24,000 nt of DNA from Oscillospiraceae bacterium (GTDB taxonomy: Bacteria; Bacillota; Clostridia; Oscillospirales; Oscillospiraceae), in contig CADARY010000049.1 of assembly GCA_902790375.1 (NCBI GenBank), forward strand, positions 5,963 to 29,962. The letters are read 5' to 3'. This document shows positions 6,866 through 15,369 of the stretch, piece by piece; the first letter of the stretch is position 1; each line of letters opens with the position of its first letter. The notes under the pieces were generated by a model that ran no database searches, had not been told where the DNA came from, and saw nothing but the letters and a program-made list of their open reading frames with translations. Both the position numbers and the translations under genes were made by a program.

Positions 6866-7138
6866 ATGCTGAACATTCGCCCGGTATCGGATTTGAGAAA
6901 CAAATACCCCGAGATCGAAGAAGCTGTCTTGAAAAGCGGGGAGCCGGTCTTCCTGACAAAAAACGGCTATGGCTCCATGGTCGTCATGAGTCTGGAGCAA
7001 TATTCCGCCCTGACAGACGGGATCGAGCTTGCCTTGGATGAAGCGGATCGCGCGGCGGTTTCTTCCGATGTCCGCTATTCTGCCGACGAAGTATTTGGCC
7101 GCATAAGGAAGAATATCTATGGAAGAAAAGCGCTATGA
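6866..7138 (+). CDS. Type II antitoxin, Phd/YefM family (90 aa)
   Basis: MLNIRPVSDLRNKYPEIEEAVLKSGEPVFLTKNGYGSMVVMSLEQYSAL is a canonical Phd/YefM N-terminal domain. RBS aaaggaggg precedes the start. Confidence 0.85.
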   Translation: MLNIRPVSDLRNKYPEIEEAVLKSGEPVFLTKNGYGSMVVMSLEQYSALTDGIELALDEADRAAVSSDVRYSADEVFGRIRKNIYGRKAL

Positions 7139-7433
7139 GCTGAGAATCCTTCCGCTTTTTGAAGAGAAGCTCCAGGAAACGGCTGACTATATCGCGTTTC
7201 GCCTGCGCAATCCAATTGCAGCCGAGGATTTCGTTGATGCTGTGGAGGCGGCCATTCTTGAACGCCTGAAAGCGCCCGAGGCTTTTGAGCCGTACCGGTC
7301 AAAGAAAGATCGCAAGTATGTATATTATGCTATCCCGGTCAAGAACTATCTCGTGTTTTATGTGGTAATCGGACATGTGATGGAAGTGCGAACGCTTGTT
7401 TATGGCAGACGTGATCTGACCAAAATCATATAA
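7119..7433 (+). CDS. Type II toxin, RelE/ParE superfamily (104 aa)
   Basis: It overlaps the antitoxin by 20 nt. The size and pattern (YELRILPLFEEKLQETADYI...YYAIPVKNYLVFYVVIGHVMEVRTLVYGRRD) are typical of ParE/RelE-fold toxins. Confidence 0.8.
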   Translation: MEEKRYELRILPLFEEKLQETADYIAFRLRNPIAAEDFVDAVEAAILERLKAPEAFEPYRSKKDRKYVYYAIPVKNYLVFYVVIGHVMEVRTLVYGRRDLTKII

Positions 7434-8091: not shown

Positions 8092-9348
8092 CTACAGCTC
8101 TGTGAGCCAGTCGTCGTCCGTGGGGGCGGTGTAGGGAACGGGCGCAGCTCCCGGAGCCTCCCCTGCCGGCGTCTCGGTGATCCAGCTCTCCGGCGGGGGC
8201 GGCAGCTCCTCCGGCAGCTCCTCGACCTCCTCGACATATTCCTCGGCGCCGCTCTGTGCCGGTGCGCTCTCGCGCCTGCCCAGAGAGAAATAGGAGATGC
8301 CCTGGATGGCGGTGGTGCAGCAGACCTCGCCGCCGCGCAGATAGACGAGGTCGAGCTGTCCCTCGCTCACAGGCCGGTCAGTGGGGTTGAGGCAGTCGTT
8401 GATCATCTGGATCCAGTTATACAGATCCAGGAAGGTGTAGCTCAGATCGTGCACGTAGGCCGGGGTGTTGGGCGCGGTGTAGAAGCGGACATCCTCACTG
8501 CGGCAGCGCAGGAACTGCCGGGCAAACCAGGCCATGTTGGAGGCTGTCATGTTGGTGTCCATGCTCTCGGCCAGGATGGCGGCCACCTCCGGGATGTTGG
8601 GGATGCTGCCGAGCTGCAGAAACTGGTCGGCGGCGGCCTTGAGGAAATCATGCTGGACCTCGATGCGGTCCAGATCCCCGTTGACATAGCCGCTGCGGAA
8701 GCGGCAGAGCCACATGGCCTGCTCGCCGTTCAGGAGCTGGTAGCCCGGCTGCAGGTCGATGACCGGGCCGTCCTCATAATACATGCGCCGGGGCACGTCA
8801 TACCAGATGCCGCCCAGGGCGTCCACCGCCCGCTGGAAGGCGTCGAGCTCAATCACGGCATAGCAGTCCACGTCGAAGCCGGTCAGCTTTTTTACATGCC
8901 GCCTGAGGGCCTCGCTGCCGCTGGCGCCGCTGTAGACCGCCGTCCAGTAGACGCCGTTTATCTTGCGGATGGGGCTGTCGATGTTGATGAGCGTGTCCCG
9001 CGGGATGCTGACGAAATTAGCCGTGTGGCGCACGGTGTCAAGCCTGCCCACCATGATGGTGTCGGTGTTGCCGGTGCCGTCGTCACTGCCGGCGAGCAGA
9101 AGGGTGTATACCCCGTCCTGCCGCGCGGTCTCGAAGGCGGTGCCCCGGTCCGGCGTGGGGCTGGGCGACGCCGCAGGCGAGGCCGCCGGCGTTGCGGCGC
9201 TCTGGTTCAGCTCTGTCAGCACCGGATTTCCCGCAGCGATCTCGGGCGGCCTCTCCCATAAAAAATAGCCGCCGACCACCGCCAGCATCAGGCCCGCAAC
9301 GCTGCCGCCGGCGATGATGAGCCAGCGCTTCCAGTTGTTCTTGTTCAT
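8092..9348 (-). CDS. LytR-CpsA-Psr (LCP) family cell-envelope glycopolymer transferase
   Basis: There is an N-terminal TM anchor (WLIIAGGSVAGLMLAVVGGYFLW). LCP core motifs are present: YTLLLAGSDDGTGNTDTIMVGRLD, FVSIPRDTLI and the IELDAFQRAVDALGG-type segment. The C-terminal tail is acidic and Pro-rich. Confidence 0.85.
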   Translation of the reverse strand: MNKNNWKRWLIIAGGSVAGLMLAVVGGYFLWERPPEIAAGNPVLTELNQSAATPAASPAASPSPTPDRGTAFETARQDGVYTLLLAGSDDGTGNTDTIMVGRLDTVRHTANFVSIPRDTLINIDSPIRKINGVYWTAVYSGASGSEALRRHVKKLTGFDVDCYAVIELDAFQRAVDALGGIWYDVPRRMYYEDGPVIDLQPGYQLLNGEQAMWLCRFRSGYVNGDLDRIEVQHDFLKAAADQFLQLGSIPNIPEVAAILAESMDTNMTASNMAWFARQFLRCRSEDVRFYTAPNTPAYVHDLSYTFLDLYNWIQMINDCLNPTDRPVSEGQLDLVYLRGGEVCCTTAIQGISYFSLGRRESAPAQSGAEEYVEEVEELPEELPPPPESWITETPAGEAPGAAPVPYTAPTDDDWLTEL

Positions 9349-9473
9349 TTCCCTCGCCCCTTTTTTAACCAGGAATCCCTATGGCAACACCGCACAATCC
9401 GCCTTCGGCATCTCCTGGAAAATTTGTGCCCTGATTTCGTCACTTTTTCTTGAGGTACACAAAGTACATCTGC

Positions 9474-9575
9474 GAAATGCCCTATATTTCCCTGTGACGG
9501 CACGGCCTTTCGCTCCCGCATCCGATCTGTCCCTGCAAGGGAGCGGCGCGCACGCTGCCGTCACATGTGCATTTC
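9474..9575 (-). ncRNA. Candidate structured 5'-UTR element (nested long hairpin) of the LCP mRNA; unclassified
   Basis: Three nested perfect helices: gaaatgc (9474-9480)/gcatttc (9569-9575), tgtgacggca (9493-9502)/tgccgtcaca (9556-9565), and cgctccc (9511-9517)/gggagcg (9539-9545). The outer helix begins about where the 9583-9611 promoter would start transcription. The strand assignment is inferred. Confidence 0.35.
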
Positions 9576-9582
9576 ACTCGGG

Positions 9583-9611
9583 AGTATTTCCCGTTTTGTG
9601 GGAAATCATAC
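9583..9611 (-). promoter_or_regulatory. Second copy of the sigG-promoter-like motif (candidate forespore promoter), about 235 nt upstream of the LCP start
   Basis: The minus strand reads GTATG-N15-GGAAATACTC. On the plus strand, AGTATTTCCCG-N13-CAT(A/G)CAG is shared with 5186-5216 at identical spacing. This copy also has an internal inverted repeat, atttccc/gggaaat. Confidence 0.4.
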
Positions 9612-9703
9612 AGGGCAGTGAAAAAACTCCACAAAAGAAGTTTTCAAGCGCTTTCAATTCCTGTACCTTTTTACCGAAAAGACGAAACAGGGAAAAAACG
9701 GCA

Positions 9704-9732
9704 TTGACTTTAGCGCCAAAAAGCGCTAAAGT
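9704..9732 (+). promoter_or_regulatory. Sigma-A promoter of the ABC importer operon
   Basis: TTGACT (9704-9709)-N17-TAAAGT (9727-9732). The spacer contains the palindrome tagcgc...gcgcta. Confidence 0.6.
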
Positions 9733-9761
9733 ACTGTCATCACCAAAGGGGAGATATGTTC

Positions 9762-9818
9762 ATGTTGAGATTTCGTCATGCATACGGACGGTATCCCTAT
9801 TCCTATTATAAGAGGTAA
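9762..9818 (+). CDS. Candidate leader peptide MLRFRHAYGRYPYSYYKR (18 aa; 20 aa as MFMLRF... if ATG 9756 is used)
   Basis: AAAGGGGAG (9745-9753) lies 8 nt before ATG 9762. Five Tyr codons fall within nine consecutive codons (9783-9809). Four of them are TAT, whereas the flanking genes mostly use TAC. Stop TAA is at 9816-9818. Confidence 0.35.
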   Translation: MLRFRHAYGRYPYSYYKR

Positions 9819-9876
9819 TAGGTGGTTCGTGCTGCACGGAAAGCTCTTATGAAGACGGGCAAAGCCCCGTGATAAG

Positions 9877-9913
9877 CGCCGCGCGGACCGAGCTCCGGGC
9901 GGCGTTCGATTTG
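9877..9913 (+). terminator. Candidate attenuator terminator in the leader of the ABC importer operon
   Basis: cgccgcgcgga (9877-9887) pairs with tccgggcggcg (9894-9904): 10 of 11 bp, with one G-G mismatch. It is followed by TTCGATTTG and lies 64 nt upstream of the SBP ATG. Confidence 0.5.
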
Positions 9914-9976
9914 CCCCTCCCTGCTGCTTTTCCCAGTACACACGCAGACAAAATACAATCAAAGGAGAACAGAACA

Positions 9977-10933
9977 ATGAAAAAGATTTTTGCACTCGCC
10001 CTCGCGCTGACCATGGTCTTCGCGCTGGCCGCCCCCTCCGCCTTTGCCGCTGACAGCTACACCGTCGGCATCTGCCAGCTCGTGCAGCACCCCGCGCTTG
10101 ACGCCGCCACCCAGGGCTTCAAGGACGCCCTGACCAAGGCCCTCGGCGACAAGGTCAGCTTTGTCGAGCAGAACGCCTCCGGCGATTCCGCCACCTGCGC
10201 CGTCATCTGCAACCAGTTCGTCTCTGACGATGTGAACCTGATCCTGGCCAATGCCACGCCCGCGCTGCTGGCTGCCCAGGCTGCCACCAACAAGATCCCT
10301 GTGCTCGGCACCTCCGTCACCGACTATGCCTCCGCCCTGGACATTGACAACTGGACGGGCAGCACCGGCGCCAATATCTCCGGCACCTCCGACGGCGTCC
10401 CCGCCTCTGAGCTTGCGGGCGTGCTGCATGAGCTGTTCCCCGATGTCAAGAACGTCGGTCTCCTGTACTGCTCCGGCGAGCCCAACTCCAAGTTCCAGGC
10501 CGATGAGATGCGCCCCGTTCTCGAGGAGATGGGCTACAAGGTCACGGACTTCACCTTTGCTGACTCCAACGATGTCTCCGCCGTCACCAACAACGCCTGC
10601 GACGACTGCGACGTGCTCTACATCCCTACCGACAACACCGCTGCCTCCAACGCCGAGCTCATCAACAACGTAGCCCTGGCCAAGAAGGTCCCCATCGTCT
10701 GCGGTGAAGAGAACCTCTGCGCCGGCTGCGGCGTGGCAACGCTCTCTATCTCCTACTACGATCTCGGCACCGTGACCGGTGAGATGGCCGCAAAGATCCT
10801 TGCCGAGGGCGCGGATGTGTCCACCATGAAGATCGAGTACGCCCCCTTCGCCAAGAAGTTCAACAAGACCAACTGTGACATTCTCGGCATCACCGTTCCC
10901 GAGACCTACGAGGCCATCGAGGCTGACGCGTAA
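9977..10933 (+). CDS. ABC transporter substrate-binding protein, COG2984 / ABC_sub_bind (PF04392) type
   Basis: The true start is ATG 9977, after aaaggag (9961-9967); the tracked 9869 start is an upstream extension. There is a signal peptide (MKKIFALALALTMVFALAAPSAFA). Family motifs are present: VGICQLVQHPALDAATQGFKDAL, NLILANATPALLAAQAAT, IPVLGTSVTDY and ISGTSD. Confidence 0.85.
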   Translation: MKKIFALALALTMVFALAAPSAFAADSYTVGICQLVQHPALDAATQGFKDALTKALGDKVSFVEQNASGDSATCAVICNQFVSDDVNLILANATPALLAAQAATNKIPVLGTSVTDYASALDIDNWTGSTGANISGTSDGVPASELAGVLHELFPDVKNVGLLYCSGEPNSKFQADEMRPVLEEMGYKVTDFTFADSNDVSAVTNNACDDCDVLYIPTDNTAASNAELINNVALAKKVPIVCGEENLCAGCGVATLSISYYDLGTVTGEMAAKILAEGADVSTMKIEYAPFAKKFNKTNCDILGITVPETYEAIEADA

Positions 10934-11132: not shown

Positions 11133-12077
11133 GTGACAATAACAAGCTACTTCGCTTCCCTGAATATACTGAAGCTCTTCCGCAATATGCCCGGCGGCGT
11201 GTCCCAGGGCATCATCTGGGGCATCATGGCCCTGGGCATTTACATCACCTTCCGCCTGCTGGACGTGGCAGACCTGACGGTGGACGGCTCGTTTACCACA
11301 GGCGGCGCCGTGACCGTCATGCTGATCCTCGCGGGCTGGCCTGCCTGGGCGGCGCTGCTGGTCGCCATGCTGGCGGGCATTCTCGCGGGCTTTGTAACCG
11401 GCATGCTGCACACGAAGCTCGGTATCCCCGCGATCCTTGCCGGTATCCTGACGCAGTTTTCGCTCTATTCGGTGAACCTGCATATCATGGGCATGGCTGC
11501 GAACAAGGCGGTCAGCGTGGATAAATACCACCTGCTTCTCTCCTCCCGCAACATCCCCTCCGCGATCCTGACCGGGGCTGTCATCGCCCTTGCGCTGGTG
11601 AGCGTGTTCTATTGGTACTTCGGTACCGAGCAGGGCTCCGCCATCCGCGCCACCGGCAACAACCCCGCCATGAGCCGCGCGCTCGGCATCAACATCGACA
11701 ACATGAAGGTGCTGGGCCTGTCCCTCTCCAACGGCATCGTGGCGCTCTCCGGCGGCCTGCTTGCCCAGTATCAGGGCTTTGCGGACATCAACATGGGCCG
11801 CGGCGCCATCGTCATCGGTCTTGCCGCCGTCATCATCGGCGAGGTGGTCGGCAACGCCATTCTCGGCAAGCGCCTGAACTTCTACGGCACACTGAGCTTC
11901 ACCGTCATCGGCGGCATCGTCTACTATCTTGTCATCGTCATTGTGCTCTGGCTGAAGCTCAACTCCAATGATCTCAAGCTCTTCACCGCGATCGTCGTGG
12001 CGCTGTTCCTGGCTGTGCCCTATCTGCGGAGCCAGCAGAAGAGCTCCTTCGCCAAGCTGAGAAAGAAAGGGGGCTGA
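11133..12077 (+). CDS. ABC transporter permease, COG4120 type
   Basis: 314-aa polytopic membrane protein with a GTG start 6 nt after gaggtg. It sits in the SBP-permease-ATPase order typical of the COG2984/4120/1101 system. Confidence 0.85.
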   Translation: MTITSYFASLNILKLFRNMPGGVSQGIIWGIMALGIYITFRLLDVADLTVDGSFTTGGAVTVMLILAGWPAWAALLVAMLAGILAGFVTGMLHTKLGIPAILAGILTQFSLYSVNLHIMGMAANKAVSVDKYHLLLSSRNIPSAILTGAVIALALVSVFYWYFGTEQGSAIRATGNNPAMSRALGINIDNMKVLGLSLSNGIVALSGGLLAQYQGFADINMGRGAIVIGLAAVIIGEVVGNAILGKRLNFYGTLSFTVIGGIVYYLVIVIVLWLKLNSNDLKLFTAIVVALFLAVPYLRSQQKSSFAKLRKKGG

Positions 12078-12081
12078 GGGT

Positions 12082-12876
12082 ATGCTGAAGCTTGAATCCA
12101 TTTCCAAAACCTTCAACCCCGGCACCATCAATGAGAAAAAAGCCCTGAACGGGCTGAGCCTGCACCTGAAGCCCGGCGACTTTGTCACCGTTATCGGCGG
12201 CAACGGCGCGGGCAAGTCCACGATGCTCAACGCCGTTGCCGGCGTCTGGCCTGTGGACGAGGGGCGCATCATCCTCGACGGGCACGACATCACCGCCCTG
12301 CCGGAGCATAAGCGCGCCCACCTGATCGGCCGCGTCTTCCAGGACCCGATGATGGGCACCGCGCCCAACATGCAGCTTGAAGAAAACCTCGCCCTTGCGG
12401 CCCGGCGCGGCCGGCCCCGCGGGCTCAAATGGGGCGTCACCAATGAAGAGCGCGAGGAATACCACGAACGGCTCAAGATCCTTGGCCTCGGGCTTGAGGA
12501 TCGCATGACCTCCAAGGTGGGCCTGCTCTCCGGCGGCCAGCGCCAGGCGGTCACGCTCCTGATGGCGGTGCTGCGCGAGCCGAAGCTCCTTCTGCTCGAC
12601 GAGCACACCGCCGCCCTCGACCCCGGTACGGCGGCCAAGGTTCTGGAGCTTTCCGACCAGATCGTGCAGGAGCATAATCTCACGACCCTGATGATCACCC
12701 ACAACATGAAGGACGCGATCCGCCACGGCAACCGCCTCATCATGATGAACGAGGGGCACATCATCCTCGATATCGAGGGGGAGGAGAAAAAGAAGCTCAC
12801 CAAGCAGCAGCTCATTGACCTGTTTGCCCAGAAGGGCGGCAGCATCGACTCTGACGAGACCTTGCTGACAAAGTAA
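12082..12876 (+). CDS. ABC transporter ATP-binding protein, COG1101 type
   Basis: Walker A GGNGAGKST, signature LSGGQRQAVTLLMAV, Walker B LLLLDEHTAALD. Confidence 0.9.
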   Translation: MLKLESISKTFNPGTINEKKALNGLSLHLKPGDFVTVIGGNGAGKSTMLNAVAGVWPVDEGRIILDGHDITALPEHKRAHLIGRVFQDPMMGTAPNMQLEENLALAARRGRPRGLKWGVTNEEREEYHERLKILGLGLEDRMTSKVGLLSGGQRQAVTLLMAVLREPKLLLLDEHTAALDPGTAAKVLELSDQIVQEHNLTTLMITHNMKDAIRHGNRLIMMNEGHIILDIEGEEKKKLTKQQLIDLFAQKGGSIDSDETLLTK

Positions 12877-12943: not shown

Positions 12944-13786
12944 CTATACCACGTATGCCTTTTTTGCGCCCAGGTCTCGGGCGAGCTGCGCATAGCGCTC
13001 GGCGTAATCCCTGTCCGTCTCAAACTCGCCCAGGAGCTTCTGCCACCGCTCCCGCACCCCGAAGGGGCGGTAGCGGATGATTTTATAGAAGCATCCGTCC
13101 CCGATATGCGCGGCCACATAACGGACGGTCTCCTCATTCTCCCGGTCCCGGTCCGGGAGGATGACGGTGCGCACCTCATAGAGCTTTCCGACCTTGAGCA
13201 GATAGTCGAGGTTTTTGAGCACCGTATCCCGGGGGTGAGAGATAAGCTGATCCGACCAGCGCTTCTCCACGGCCTTCACATCCAGCATCACGCCTTCGGA
13301 CACCCGGAGCACACGCGGGTCCTTTTCAAAATCAAAGGAGCCGTTGGAGTCGATGAGGCAGGTCTTGCCGAGCTTGCGAACCTCGGTGAAAAGCTCGATC
13401 AGAAATTCATTCTGCAGGGTACACTCCCCGCCGGAGGTGCTGATCCCCCGGATATAGGGCATGCTTCGCCGCAGCTCTGTCATCAGCTCCTCCACCGTCA
13501 TCCAGCGGACCTTCGGGGAGGCGTCATGCGGGCAGGTGCGGATACAGGTATCGCACTGGACACAGGCGGCGCTGTCCCAATGGACCGCGCCGTCCCCGCC
13601 AAGGGTGAGGGCCCCGGCGGGACAGGTTTTCACGCAGGCCCCGCAGCTTTGGCAGAGGTGGATCGTCTCCGGGTTGTGGCAGTAAAGGCAGTTGAAGGGA
13701 CAGCCCTGGAAAAAGACCGCCGTGCGGTTGCCCGGCCCGTCGACATTGGAGAAGGGGATGATCCTGTTGACCGGCGCTTTAAGCAT
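12944..13786 (-). CDS. yjjW: Glycyl-radical enzyme activase, YjjW family (radical SAM with two extra ferredoxin-like clusters)
   Basis: Radical SAM motif CPFNCLYCHN, plus CQSCGACVKTCP and CVQCDTCIRTCP. The preferred start is ATG 13786 (MLKAPVNRIIPFS...), which overlaps the yjjI stop by 8 nt; the tracked start is 13813. Confidence 0.85.
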   Translation of the reverse strand: MLKAPVNRIIPFSNVDGPGNRTAVFFQGCPFNCLYCHNPETIHLCQSCGACVKTCPAGALTLGGDGAVHWDSAACVQCDTCIRTCPHDASPKVRWMTVEELMTELRRSMPYIRGISTSGGECTLQNEFLIELFTEVRKLGKTCLIDSNGSFDFEKDPRVLRVSEGVMLDVKAVEKRWSDQLISHPRDTVLKNLDYLLKVGKLYEVRTVILPDRDRENEETVRYVAAHIGDGCFYKIIRYRPFGVRERWQKLLGEFETDRDYAERYAQLARDLGAKKAYVV

Positions 13787-15284
13787 GCTTCTGGATGCGG
13801 CGGTCCAGGGCATGGCCGCCGTCCTGCGCGCCCATGCCGAAGACGGTGACGTTGTTGAGGGACTGCTTTTTGGCGCGCAGCTTCTCGATCTCGCTCTTCT
13901 TCACGAGATAGCCCGTGACGCGCACCACGTCGTTATTTTCAAGATACCCTGAGAAGTAACGCAGGCCGCGTTCCAGCGACGCCTGGATGATCGGCAGAAC
14001 CGCCTCGGGGGTCTTGGCCCAGGTCTCCTCAAACTTGAAGATATCGCCGGTGCCGGTGGGGAAATAGGGATGGAAGATCTCATTGACCTCAAGCTGCTCA
14101 AGCATCGTGGGCTCCGCGCCGATGGGAATGCGGGTGCCGGGGGCGTCGTCCATGCCGTCGGTGTCGATGCCGACCTGGGCATGCAGGCGATAGCGGTGGC
14201 CGTAGGCTTCGCAGTAGGGGGCTTCATGTGCCCTGACGCGCGCGTCGATGGCGTCCATGATGCGCACGCCAAGCGCGGTGGCCTCCTTGTTCATGCCGAA
14301 GCCCTTCTTCTTGTCCTCGATGCCGAGAAGATAGTTGCAGCACTCCGCAAGGCCGACCACGCCGAACATGCCGGTGAAATTTTCCTGCTTGACAAAGCCC
14401 TCTGTCACGAGGAAATTCGTCTTGAAGAAGCTCGACTGCTCGACAATGAACTTTACGCGCTTGTCCATGTACTCGAGCTGCAGGTCGATGTGACGAGGCA
14501 GCTCGCGCTGCAGGAAGTCCTCCGGGCTCTTGGCGTCCAGGGCGCATTCATACAGGCGCATGCGGGGCAGAGTGTAACCGCCGCCCGCGATGTTCAGGCC
14601 GTTATAGCAGGAGGCGATGGCATAGCGCTCGCCCCACTCCCTGACGAACATACGGTGATTTGCAAAGGAGGGCTTGGCGGTCTTGAGCATGCAGCGGACG
14701 CAGGCAAGGGCAAAGTCCTCGCTGGTGCGCTCGGGATCGTATTTGAGGGTGATGTTCGGCACCGCAAGCTGCATCTCCTCAGTGAGTTCCAGCAGGAGGC
14801 GTCCGGTAACGCTGTCCTCCGGGCCGATGTCGGCATGGACAAAGGAGTCGGTCTGCACCCGGTCGATGTTCCGCAGGAAGAGGCCCAGCACCTTCTTGGC
14901 GTAGGCACGGTCTTCCTTGATCACAAAGGGCTCCAGCAGCTTGTCCAGATCCCCCAGATACACGGGGAAGGACGTGATGGAGGGCACGTGGCAGTAGAAG
15001 ATCTCCAGCACGTTCACCGCCTCGAGCAGATCCCTGGGCGGGTCAAGCGCCAGAAACTTGCAGCCCTTCTGAAACAGCAGCTCGTAGTCCGGGCAGATAT
15101 AACGGGGACGATAGGGCATGACGCCCTCGTTCAGGTCGCACAGCGCGCCCTTTCTCTTGGCCTCATAGTAGGCGTCGGAATAGCGCAGGGTATCGTCGGT
15201 GCTCTCGCCGAGGCGGGCCAGCGCCAGCAGCTCCTGCTTATAGGTGAGGGTCGGATCCTGAATGATTTTCAATGCTTCTGACAA
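13779..15284 (-). CDS. yjjI: YjjI-family glycine radical enzyme (DUF3029), function unknown
   Basis: There is a C-terminal glycyl-radical-type motif VVRVTGYLVK. The gene is paired with a YjjW-type activase. The preferred start is TTG 15284, 8 nt after aaaggagg (plus-strand cctcctt at 15293-15299), giving MSEALKIIQDPTL... (about 501 aa). Confidence 0.8.
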   Translation of the reverse strand: MSEALKIIQDPTLTYKQELLALARLGESTDDTLRYSDAYYEAKRKGALCDLNEGVMPYRPRYICPDYELLFQKGCKFLALDPPRDLLEAVNVLEIFYCHVPSITSFPVYLGDLDKLLEPFVIKEDRAYAKKVLGLFLRNIDRVQTDSFVHADIGPEDSVTGRLLLELTEEMQLAVPNITLKYDPERTSEDFALACVRCMLKTAKPSFANHRMFVREWGERYAIASCYNGLNIAGGGYTLPRMRLYECALDAKSPEDFLQRELPRHIDLQLEYMDKRVKFIVEQSSFFKTNFLVTEGFVKQENFTGMFGVVGLAECCNYLLGIEDKKKGFGMNKEATALGVRIMDAIDARVRAHEAPYCEAYGHRYRLHAQVGIDTDGMDDAPGTRIPIGAEPTMLEQLEVNEIFHPYFPTGTGDIFKFEETWAKTPEAVLPIIQASLERGLRYFSGYLENNDVVRVTGYLVKKSEIEKLRAKKQSLNNVTVFGMGAQDGGHALDRRIQKHA

Positions 15285-15332
15285 GGTTGATTCCTCCTTT
15301 AATATGCCGCGAAGCCCACAGTTTTCTATTTT

Positions 15333-15361
15333 AGTTATAACAAGAAACAAGCGGATTGTCA
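15333..15361 (-). promoter_or_regulatory. Sigma-A promoter of yjjI-yjjW
   Basis: The minus strand reads TTGACA (15356-15361)-N17-TATAAC (15333-15338). Confidence 0.65.
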
Positions 15362-15369
15362 ATCGGACG

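Follow-up and report, generated by a model that had tools for sequence, protein, structure and literature searches.

A candidate ribosome-mediated attenuator with a tyrosine-codon run upstream of a predicted tyrosine importer in Oscillospiraceae

How might an uncultured gut bacterium match the synthesis of an amino acid importer to its need for that amino acid? The question is raised by a stretch of 24,000 nucleotides (nt) of contig CADARY010000049.1 from an Oscillospiraceae bacterium (assembly GCA_902790375.1), which is called here the window, and in which three genes for an ATP-binding cassette (ABC) importer are preceded by a short open reading frame (ORF) crowded with tyrosine codons and by an intrinsic terminator. 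The original prediction, drawn from the letters of the window, was that a leader-peptide attenuator in the style of the trp operon, reading tyrosine, here takes the place of a T-box. That proposal is borne out by an ORF and a terminator in all of the 30 related leaders compared, by helices that covary, by a geometry that would allow the ribosome to occlude the switching strand, by an importer predicted to carry tyrosine, and by a tyrosine T-box that precedes one orthologue (locus L060). We estimate at roughly 0.8 the probability that the leader is a ribosome-mediated transcription attenuator, through which the supply of charged transfer RNA (tRNA-Tyr) would determine how strongly a tyrosine ABC importer is expressed. 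The elements of the leader are the following.

9704-9732, plus strand: promoter, with a -35 hexamer TTGACT at 9704-9709, a 17-nt spacer and a -10 hexamer TAAAGT at 9727-9732; the transcript is predicted to start at about 9739-9741.
9748-9753, plus strand: Shine-Dalgarno (SD) sequence GGGGAG of the leader ORF, read directly, with an SD-like core in related leaders.
9762-9818, plus strand: leader ORF MLRFRHAYGRYPYSYYKR (18 codons, then the stop codon TAA at 9816-9818), read directly; an alternative start at 9756 adds the residues MF.
9780-9808, plus strand: region 1, the 5' arm of the 1:2 hairpin as drawn from single-sequence folds, inside the ORF and holding Tyr codons, with an outer part at about 9785-9791 and an inner part CCCTATTCCTATTA at 9795-9808.
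9815-9835, plus strand: region 2, made up of GTAATAGG at 9815-9822, which includes the stop codon, and region 2b, GTTCGTGCTGC, at 9825-9835; it pairs with either region 1 or region 3.
9855-9870, plus strand: small clade-specific hairpin ACGGGC-AAA-GCCCCGT in the variable spacer, read directly and seen in the fold.
9876-9913, plus strand: intrinsic terminator, with region 3 as 5' arm (9876-9888, core GCCGCGCGGAC at 9878-9888), a loop at 9888-9893, region 4 as 3' arm (9894-9905) and the U tract TCGATTTG at 9906-9913.

The original prediction had located most of these elements correctly: the promoter TTGACT-N17-TAAAGT, the SD, the mini-ORF with its five Tyr codons (four of them TAT), the hairpin between 9802-9808 and 9816-9822, and the GC-rich terminator hairpin 64 nt before the binding-protein gene are all present where it had put them. 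The start codon of that gene is the ATG at 9977 and not at 9978.

Whether these elements form a functional unit was addressed by comparison. With the binding protein as query, 72 loci were found among genomes taken one per species; they are cited below by L numbers where needed, and the 330 nt upstream of each gene were compared. These loci belong mostly to metagenome-assembled rumen or gut Oscillospiraceae and 'Ruminococcaceae' and to Candidatus Limivicinus (Bacillota, Clostridia). The leader of the window is shared by 29 other species-level genomes, which gives 30 leaders of a type that we designate class A, and the accompanying binding proteins are 59-96% identical to that of the window over the best tblastn segment. 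Each class-A leader consists of a promoter, an SD with its ATG, a Tyr-rich mini-ORF, the block GTAATAG..GTTTGTGCTGC, a spacer and the terminator. Region 2 is the best-conserved block of the whole leader, and the spacer between regions 2 and 3 varies in length and sequence between loci. An exact-pattern scan of metagenomes gave at least 120 matches, at least 66 of them complete leaders; among the complete leaders listed, nearly all of those with enough downstream sequence directly precede an orthologue of the binding protein, and many come from human-gut samples. A covariance model built from eight seed leaders and searched against 89 sources recovered all 30 class-A leaders together with 16 metagenome copies (window match 9777-9912, E about 4e-4). 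In the rest of the 89 sources it returned nothing but six weak reverse-strand matches overlapping the hairpins of the leaders themselves, and no further leader copies were found by it in the window or in the loci outside class A.

Known RNA families do not account for the region. No Rfam model, the leader families Trp_leader, Phe_leader, His_leader, Leu_leader and Thr_leader included, matched the window at its gathering score, and at E <= 10 only three chance-level matches appeared in 9300-10050. One of them, a 'Phe_leader' match at 9617-9714 on the opposite strand, was dismissed as chance (18.7 bits against a cut-off of 55, E = 2.2). The T-box model RF00230 gave no match in the window even at E <= 10, and the same model does find T-boxes in front of the orthologues L060 and L071. 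The leader is thus covered by neither a T-box nor any other family in the Rfam covariance scan.

The reading frame itself is rich in tyrosine. Conceptual translation in the window gives M(FM)LRFRHAYGRYPYSYYKR, with Tyr codons at 9783, 9792, 9798, 9804 and 9807, that is, five within nine codons, four of them TAT. The start codon is probably ATG 9762, at 8 nt from the SD core, since ATG 9756 lies only 2 nt from that core and the closest relative, L057, lacks it. All 30 class-A leaders hold an ORF of 15-30 codons that begins with ATG, and in 29 of them the ATG chosen has an SD-like core before it, at a distance of 5-11 nt in 28; the two odd entries reflect choices of the script, which used ATG 9756 in the window (3 nt) and picked an ATG too far upstream in L034 (no SD). 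Tyrosine makes up 21.5% of the residues in the 30 peptides and phenylalanine 10.9%. Over the ORF spans, 138 Tyr codons fall in the frame of the ORF versus 1 and 7 in the other two frames, and the ORF frame is the richest in every leader. The arrangement and number of the Tyr residues vary by species (YGRYPYSYY, YAYSYYSYY, YYYRYYF, YYYYYFF and others). TAT accounts for 54% of the Tyr codons in the leaders versus 17% in the binding-protein genes, an excess that may be partly forced by the pairing CUAUUAC/GUAAUAG described below. The earlier statement that the surrounding genes use mostly TAC stands for the binding-protein gene of the window (TAC 8, TAT 1) and holds less well for four neighbouring genes (TAC:TAT 23:16).

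At the RNA level, two mutually exclusive folds compete for region 3, and both covary. The terminator hairpin 9876-9905 is GC-rich (-22.0 kcal/mol) and ends 64 nt before the ATG of the binding-protein gene. A terminator was found individually in each of the 30 leaders, in the class-A form GCGCCGCACAGAC-loop-GTCTGgGCGGCG-UUUU, and in an alignment of 46 sequences fitted to the covariance model helix 3:4 is 91.6% paired, and both sides have changed in 7 of its 11 pairs. In the antiterminator, 9825-9835 pairs with 9878-9888, so that GTTTGTGCTGC is joined to GCCGCACAGAC, the 5' arm of the terminator, with one conserved U/C mismatch. Helix 2:3 is visible in a plain MAFFT alignment, with 97.0% of cells paired and four pairs changed on both sides; none of 500 shuffles reached the observed value on four of five measures, and controls in which the strands were slid gave 21-62%. 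On the 46 sequences the helix is 98.1% paired (slid controls 18-61%). Changes are also seen in individual lineages: in that of the window a U-A pair became C-G at 9828/9885, accompanied by a change in the terminator partner; another change of this type is present in L007 and L015; and in L058 all three strands have been rewritten together. Duplex energies of cognate versus non-cognate strands were significant for 2:3 (3/5000) and for 3:4 (0/5000), and were not for 1:2 (464/5000).

The antiterminator differs from the one first suggested. The pairing of 9837-9846 with 9890-9897 exists only in the window and in L057, in a spacer that differs completely in other species, and was rejected as a conserved switch in favour of 9825-9835 with 9878-9888. 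The segment 9826-9831, which had been taken for a mere competitor of the proposed strand, turns out to be part of the conserved antiterminator strand 9825-9835.

The third helix, 1:2, folds region 2 back onto the Tyr codons. In single-sequence folds this pairing is present in nearly all leaders, and in the window CCTATTA at 9802-9808 is the exact complement of TAATAGG at 9816-9822. In the covariance-model alignment, which is itself fitted to the structure, the inner stem (CUAUUAC/GUAAUAG, with the variants UUUC/GAAA, UUCC/GGGA and UUAU/AUAA) is 92% paired and shows compensation in 9 of its 11 pairs, and four outer pairs are 84-90% paired. For the termination fold as a whole the same alignment gives 27 pairs, 89.2% paired and 20 compensated, with 0/500 shuffles reaching this level and slid controls at 32-65%. 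Taking the helices and the ORF together, the conservation and covariation that the original prediction would lead one to expect among orthologous leaders are found for the mini-ORF, the Tyr run and the hairpins alike.

The position of the stop codon relates the frame to the switch. In 21 of 30 leaders it precedes the first base of region 2b by 5-16 nt and is mostly the TAA of GTAATAG, which is the arrangement of the window; the remaining nine have a shifted frame that reads ..NSGLCC.. through region 2, with the stop codon 11-23 nt past the base at which region 2b begins. Since GTAATAG is kept whichever frame is used, it is a constraint at the RNA level. The ORF always ends 23-64 nt before region 3, and from the last Tyr codon down to region 2b there are 18-31 nt.

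Ribosome positions were also modelled with a crude thermodynamic scheme, in which a footprint from -15 to +12 around the A-site codon was masked and the transcript folded to the end of region 3. With no ribosome, 1:2 formed and 2:3 was absent in 28 of 30 leaders; a ribosome at the stop codon left at most four of the 2:3 pairs in all 30; and a stall at one or more Tyr codons allowed at least eight of these pairs in 24 of 30.

On these elements a mechanism can be proposed. Transcription would start just downstream of the promoter 9704-9732, and a ribosome would load at GGGGAG and ATG 9762. If Tyr-tRNA is plentiful, the ribosome would reach the stop codon at 9816 inside region 2 and cover GTTCGTGCTGC at 9825-9835; with region 2 covered, region 3 would pair with region 4, the terminator 9876-9905 with its U-rich tail would form, and transcription would end before the binding-protein gene. 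If Tyr-tRNA is scarce, the ribosome would stall on the Tyr codons of region 1, leaving region 2 free to pair with the emerging region 3, so that 2:3 would preclude the terminator and the three importer genes would be transcribed. Should there be no translation at all, 1:2 would pair and the terminator would form. The 1:2 hairpin may in addition act as a pause site for the polymerase, by analogy with the trp leader of Escherichia coli. The leader has every computationally testable defining feature of leader-peptide attenuators: its parts are present and conserved, three helices covary, and the codon frame, the geometry and the specificity predicted for the importer all fit; that the ORF is translated, that ribosomes stall at its Tyr codons and that the polymerase keeps in step with the lead ribosome are steps we infer.

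A tyrosine sensor would have a matching output in a tyrosine importer, and the genes concerned are the following.

9977-10933, plus strand: substrate-binding lipoprotein, predicted tyrosine binder (PF04392, Pfam E = 8.7e-54).
11133-12077, plus strand: permease, BPD_transp_2 (Pfam E = 8.8e-30).
12082-12876, plus strand: ATPase, ABC_tran (Pfam E = 2.8e-28), the last gene of the operon.

The operon is limited to these three genes because the next ones are convergent. The closest solved relative of the binding protein is 6HNI, CD0873 of Clostridioides difficile (E = 1.1e-43), which binds tyrosine: its Glu263 hydrogen-bonds the hydroxyl group and is replaced by Ala in the Phe binder 3LKV and the Trp binder 3LFT, and its Tyr279, which is Gln in the Trp binder, excludes Trp (PMC6816091). 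Both a HMMER alignment to 6HNI, 3LFT and 3LKV and a multiple alignment place Glu and Tyr at these two positions in the window protein, and the same residues are kept in all other full-length orthologues but the most distant one, L071 (L016, L058 and L070 are truncated or frameshifted and thus uninformative at these positions). The importer is predicted from these residues to be tyrosine-specific.

T-boxes stand directly upstream of two orthologues and on the same strand, at 2623-2843 in L060 and at 2605-2838 in L071. The L060 T-box reads GAA-UAC-A, a Tyr (UAC) specifier if, as we assume from the glyQS T-boxes, the specifier codon is set directly after the S-turn GAA. In L071 a Tyr replaces the equivalent of Glu263, and its T-box reads GAAGUUCA, that is, Phe or Val. 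The streptococcal homologue TrpX belongs to a Trp importer under a Trp T-box, as in trpXYZ of Streptococcus suis and S. pneumoniae (PMC9382623). With T-boxes before L060, L071 and streptococcal trpX, the gene family is therefore one that is regulated elsewhere through tRNA charging, and the clade of the window is its predicted tyrosine branch. T-box and leader peptide can, on this evidence, replace each other before the same gene within Clostridia.

Further support for the Tyr run as a selected feature comes from orthologues whose leaders the class-A model misses (L023, L033, L053, L072, L049, L038, L024, L032 and L030), and which carry an SD-preceded, Tyr/Phe-rich ORF and a terminator just before the gene. 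The peptides read, for example, ..GRFYYAYYCFF.. or ..GRFSYAYYYFF.., and in L072 MARNGYSYYYYYC..; L023, L033 and L053, whose leaders span about -240 to -40 relative to the start of the binding protein, have the motif ACAGAACGATAA in common. These leaders are unrelated in sequence to class A, which supports, at the level of comparison, the view that the Tyr run has been selected in its own right.

Several observations weigh against ribosome-mediated attenuation and deserve to be set out together, along with the explanations that would draw on them. Some concern the helices. The terminator of the window has a 1x1 G/G mismatch in its stem and an interrupted U tract, UUCGAUUUG, and is not listed by a simple consensus terminator scan. 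On the 1:2 hairpin, a MAFFT alignment analysed with RNAalifold yielded no consensus pairs, which is explained by the UAUUAC repeats of the Tyr codons shifting register between species in an alignment made from sequence alone, and it took the structure-fitted alignment to bring out covariation; shuffling of region 1 in single sequences gave a mean z of -1.6, with 9 of 30 leaders below -2, only moderately better than controls.

Others concern the frame. Frame +2 is stop-free in 27 of 30 leaders too, so that an open frame alone is weak evidence, and this is a point for the view that the ORF is incidental and that a factor binding the UAU/UAC repeats or the 1:2 hairpin chooses between terminator and antiterminator. 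The UAUUAC repeats and the conserved hairpin could indeed serve as a binding platform, and ribosome-mediated attenuation is uncommon in Bacillota (PMC2965389). We nevertheless consider such a factor very improbable: the properly spaced SD and ATG are conserved and always set the Tyr frame (in 30 of 30 leaders, with the codon counts given above), every ORF comes to its end in region 2 or shortly behind it, no conserved unpaired pocket is seen outside the switching helices, the leader matches no Rfam family, and the number and arrangement of the Tyr codons shift by species while the pairing is kept.

A further group concerns the signal. Masking gave no antiterminator in six of 30 leaders and was equally permissive for stalls at early non-Tyr codons, so that specificity for Tyr would have to come, in this model, from which codons actually stall. 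Phe codons are enriched as well, and the signal is perhaps not purely tyrosine. That the simulation singles out no Tyr codons, and that the peptides bear a recurrent N-terminal Arg-Phe/Tyr-Ala motif whose conserved Arg is encoded synonymously by CGC, CGT, CGG, CGA or AGA, would suit a sensor of another kind, in which the nascent peptide stalls the ribosome, as TnaC does, when the exit tunnel holds free tyrosine or some other ligand, or in which translation stress in general rather than shortage of tRNA-Tyr is read. Under the first of these the logic would be inverted, with abundant tyrosine turning the importer on when it is least needed. Moreover, apart from their Tyr and Phe content the peptides vary widely in length and sequence, the sequence-unrelated leaders have only the Tyr run in common with class A, and the motif has a possible explanation in the RNA, since about half of the leaders allow the UUUGC of its Phe-Ala codons to pair with a GCAAA that closely follows region 2. 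Sensing of this sort therefore seems to us improbable, and a reading of tRNA-Tyr charging by the ribosome remains the preferred explanation.

Finally, Bacillota have been classed phylum-wide as organisms of runaway transcription, in which the polymerase outpaces the ribosome (PMC13323073), a situation that disfavours attenuation unless the polymerase pauses in the leader. Ribosome stalling together with NusG-dependent pausing of the polymerase, as reported for Bacillus subtilis (PMC6851288), offers a precedent in the phylum, alongside the His and Leu leaders cited below.

A second layer of control may lie in the promoter, which scores 9/12 matches in a promoter scan and whose TTGACT...TAAAGT hexamers are kept across the class-A loci in the upstream alignment, in the form TTGACTTTAGCACCAAAAAGTGCTAAAGT. 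It is overlapped by the following feature.

9707-9732, no strand: perfect inverted repeat of 10+10 base pairs (bp), ACTTTAGCGC-CAAAAA-GCGCTAAAGT, with arms at 9707-9716 and 9723-9732, overlapping both promoter hexamers.

This pattern has a single match in the window, with 0.04 expected by chance, and the exact palindrome recurs at the equivalent promoter in 16 related loci, with spacer bases conserved across species. The palindrome is thus a likely candidate for a repressor operator, which would put a second control layer on the importer operon. It could even be asked whether control at the promoter is dominant and the hairpins are a constitutive, leaky terminator or a stabilizing 5' structure. 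A perfect repeat lying over both hexamers with conserved spacer bases would fit this possibility, and so would the palindromes of the TTTAAAGC type that lie near the promoter, in the forms CGCTTTAAAGCTTTAAAGCG or GCGCTTTAATGC..GCATTAAAGCGG, in orthologues devoid of a leader terminator (L026, L045, L051, L055 and L050), where they suggest control by a DNA-binding regulator in those lineages. Dominant promoter control would leave the Tyr-rich ORF, the covarying antiterminator and the placement of the stop codon unexplained, however, and the distant class-A leaders L017, L021, L022 and L058 keep the attenuator in the absence of the palindrome. The two layers are compatible, being combined in the E. 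coli trp operon, and we give very little credence to the promoter as the dominant switch. If attenuation is combined with an operator here, one may tentatively imagine, at odds that we place well below even, a two-layer logic like that of the trp operon for an importer of Clostridia, in which a repressor on the palindrome would read free tyrosine and the leader peptide would read the charging of tRNA-Tyr, the lead ribosome having to keep pace with the polymerase. Were this true, transcription-translation coupling or pausing could be studied in Oscillospiraceae with this leader as a natural probe.

Other features of the intergenic DNA were noted around the promoter. A stretch of about 110 nt upstream of it, at 9573-9683, is conserved in L001, L002, L003, L005, L007, L009 and L015. 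Within this stretch, a hairpin resembling a terminator (9579-9593) runs into TTTTG, and the motif TTTTTACCGAAA, also conserved, stands some 25 nt ahead of the -35 hexamer. Further upstream, at 9492-9567 in this divergent intergenic region, lies a long imperfect inverted repeat, GTGACGGCA...TGCCGTCAC, with inner arms CGCTCCC/GGGAGCG, common only to the window and its closest relative, L057. The 116-nt stretch 9490-9605, which comprises this repeat and the 9579-9593 hairpin, folds at -48.6 kcal/mol. Downstream, in the interval between terminator and gene, a second promoter-like site, TTCCCA-N18-TACAAT at 9930-9959, would bypass the attenuator; it was discarded as a weak 9/12 match of chance frequency, with its -10 altered in L057 and in a region that is not conserved.

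On some short metagenome contigs (L090/L091 compared with L103, and L120/L178/L186 compared with L074) an identical class-A leader and lipoprotein signal peptide are followed by an abrupt divergence after the lipobox, the mature proteins being DctP-like, DUF4358, Redoxin or SBP_bac_5. These contigs are probably assembly chimeras joined at a repeated signal-peptide sequence, real shuffling of a module of leader plus signal peptide being the other conceivable origin. As identity breaks exactly after the shared signal peptide, occurrences of the leader before other genes were left out of the counts.

The genomic neighbourhood of the operon includes one gene identified by Pfam on its upstream side.

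8092-9348, minus strand: LytR_cpsA_psr family gene, the upstream neighbour.

Convergent to the operon, at 12944-15362 on the minus strand, lie a YjjI-like glycyl-radical enzyme and its radical-SAM activase, followed by a cluster with rpoA, rpsD, rpsM, map and secY. A Phd/YefM antitoxin and ParE toxin pair is found at 6866-7433.

Several implications follow for the biology of these organisms. A family of leaders reading Tyr would add an amino acid to leader-peptide attenuation, and would do so for an importer rather than a biosynthetic operon. It would allow a widespread operon of uncultured Oscillospiraceae from rumen and human gut to be annotated by function, as one for tyrosine uptake that is induced when tyrosine runs short. 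A conserved attenuator read by the ribosome further predicts local polymerase pausing or coupling in the Bacillota that carry it, and could serve as a compact test system for either, while the seed of the covariance model is available for annotating further leaders.

Among systems already described, the T-box leaders of the same transporter family (trpXYZ, PMC9382623; L060) are alike in their tRNA-charging input, their terminator/antiterminator output and the gene family that they control. They differ in the sensor, which in the window would be a ribosome on an ORF instead of a contact between RNA and tRNA, and the window leader has no Stem I, specifier loop or T-box sequence. In an older survey tyrosine was placed under T-box control, and attenuators were given for Phe, His and Thr (PMC1262725). 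As for the transported ligand, the likeness to C. difficile CD0873 (6HNI, PMC6816091) lies in the Glu263 and Tyr279 equivalents kept in the window protein; the two are distant homologues, so that the ligand of the latter is predicted.

Within Bacillota, where T-boxes are more usual, leader-peptide attenuators have been reported upstream of hisS/hisZ paralogues in Bacilli (the His leader, PMC2965389), and a Leu-rich attenuator peptide is reported for the ilv-leu operon of Staphylococcus aureus (PMC5794164). The His and Leu leaders resemble the window leader in being amino acid leaders read by a ribosome in the same phylum; the window leader differs in the amino acid, in the class, Clostridia, and in having a transporter as target, and is known here from comparison. 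Conserved upstream ORFs with cognate codons next to a terminator have also been found computationally, as in this work, in the candidate cysS Cys leader of Rhodobacterales and the aroF Phe ORF of Acholeplasma (PMC8632094), which concern different amino acids, genes and taxa, none of them tyrosine. In a full-text literature search of incomplete coverage no tyrosine leader peptide was found, and mention of Tyr codons was never met together with that of leader-peptide attenuation.

Attenuation by a leader peptide is textbook knowledge, but the amino acids for which it is known are only a handful, most cases come from Proteobacteria and Actinobacteria, and such leaders are rare in Clostridia. With trpL of E. 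coli and its kin (hisL, pheL, leuL, thrL and the ilv leaders) the window leader has in common a short ORF in which codons of the amino acid sensed form a run, the alternative of 1:2 plus 3:4 versus 2:3, a stop codon placed so that the terminating ribosome covers region 2, and an intrinsic terminator before the first gene; with the trp operon in particular it may also have in common the combination of an attenuator with an operator at the promoter. Unlike those leaders, which stand before biosynthetic operons or a synthetase, it would sense tyrosine and precedes an importer; it belongs to Clostridia (Oscillospiraceae and relatives), matches no Rfam leader family, and shows two stop-codon geometries and a long, variable spacer between regions 2 and 3. 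It brings no new mechanistic principle, and what we rate as new here is the amino acid, the type of target and the class in which this established form of control would operate.

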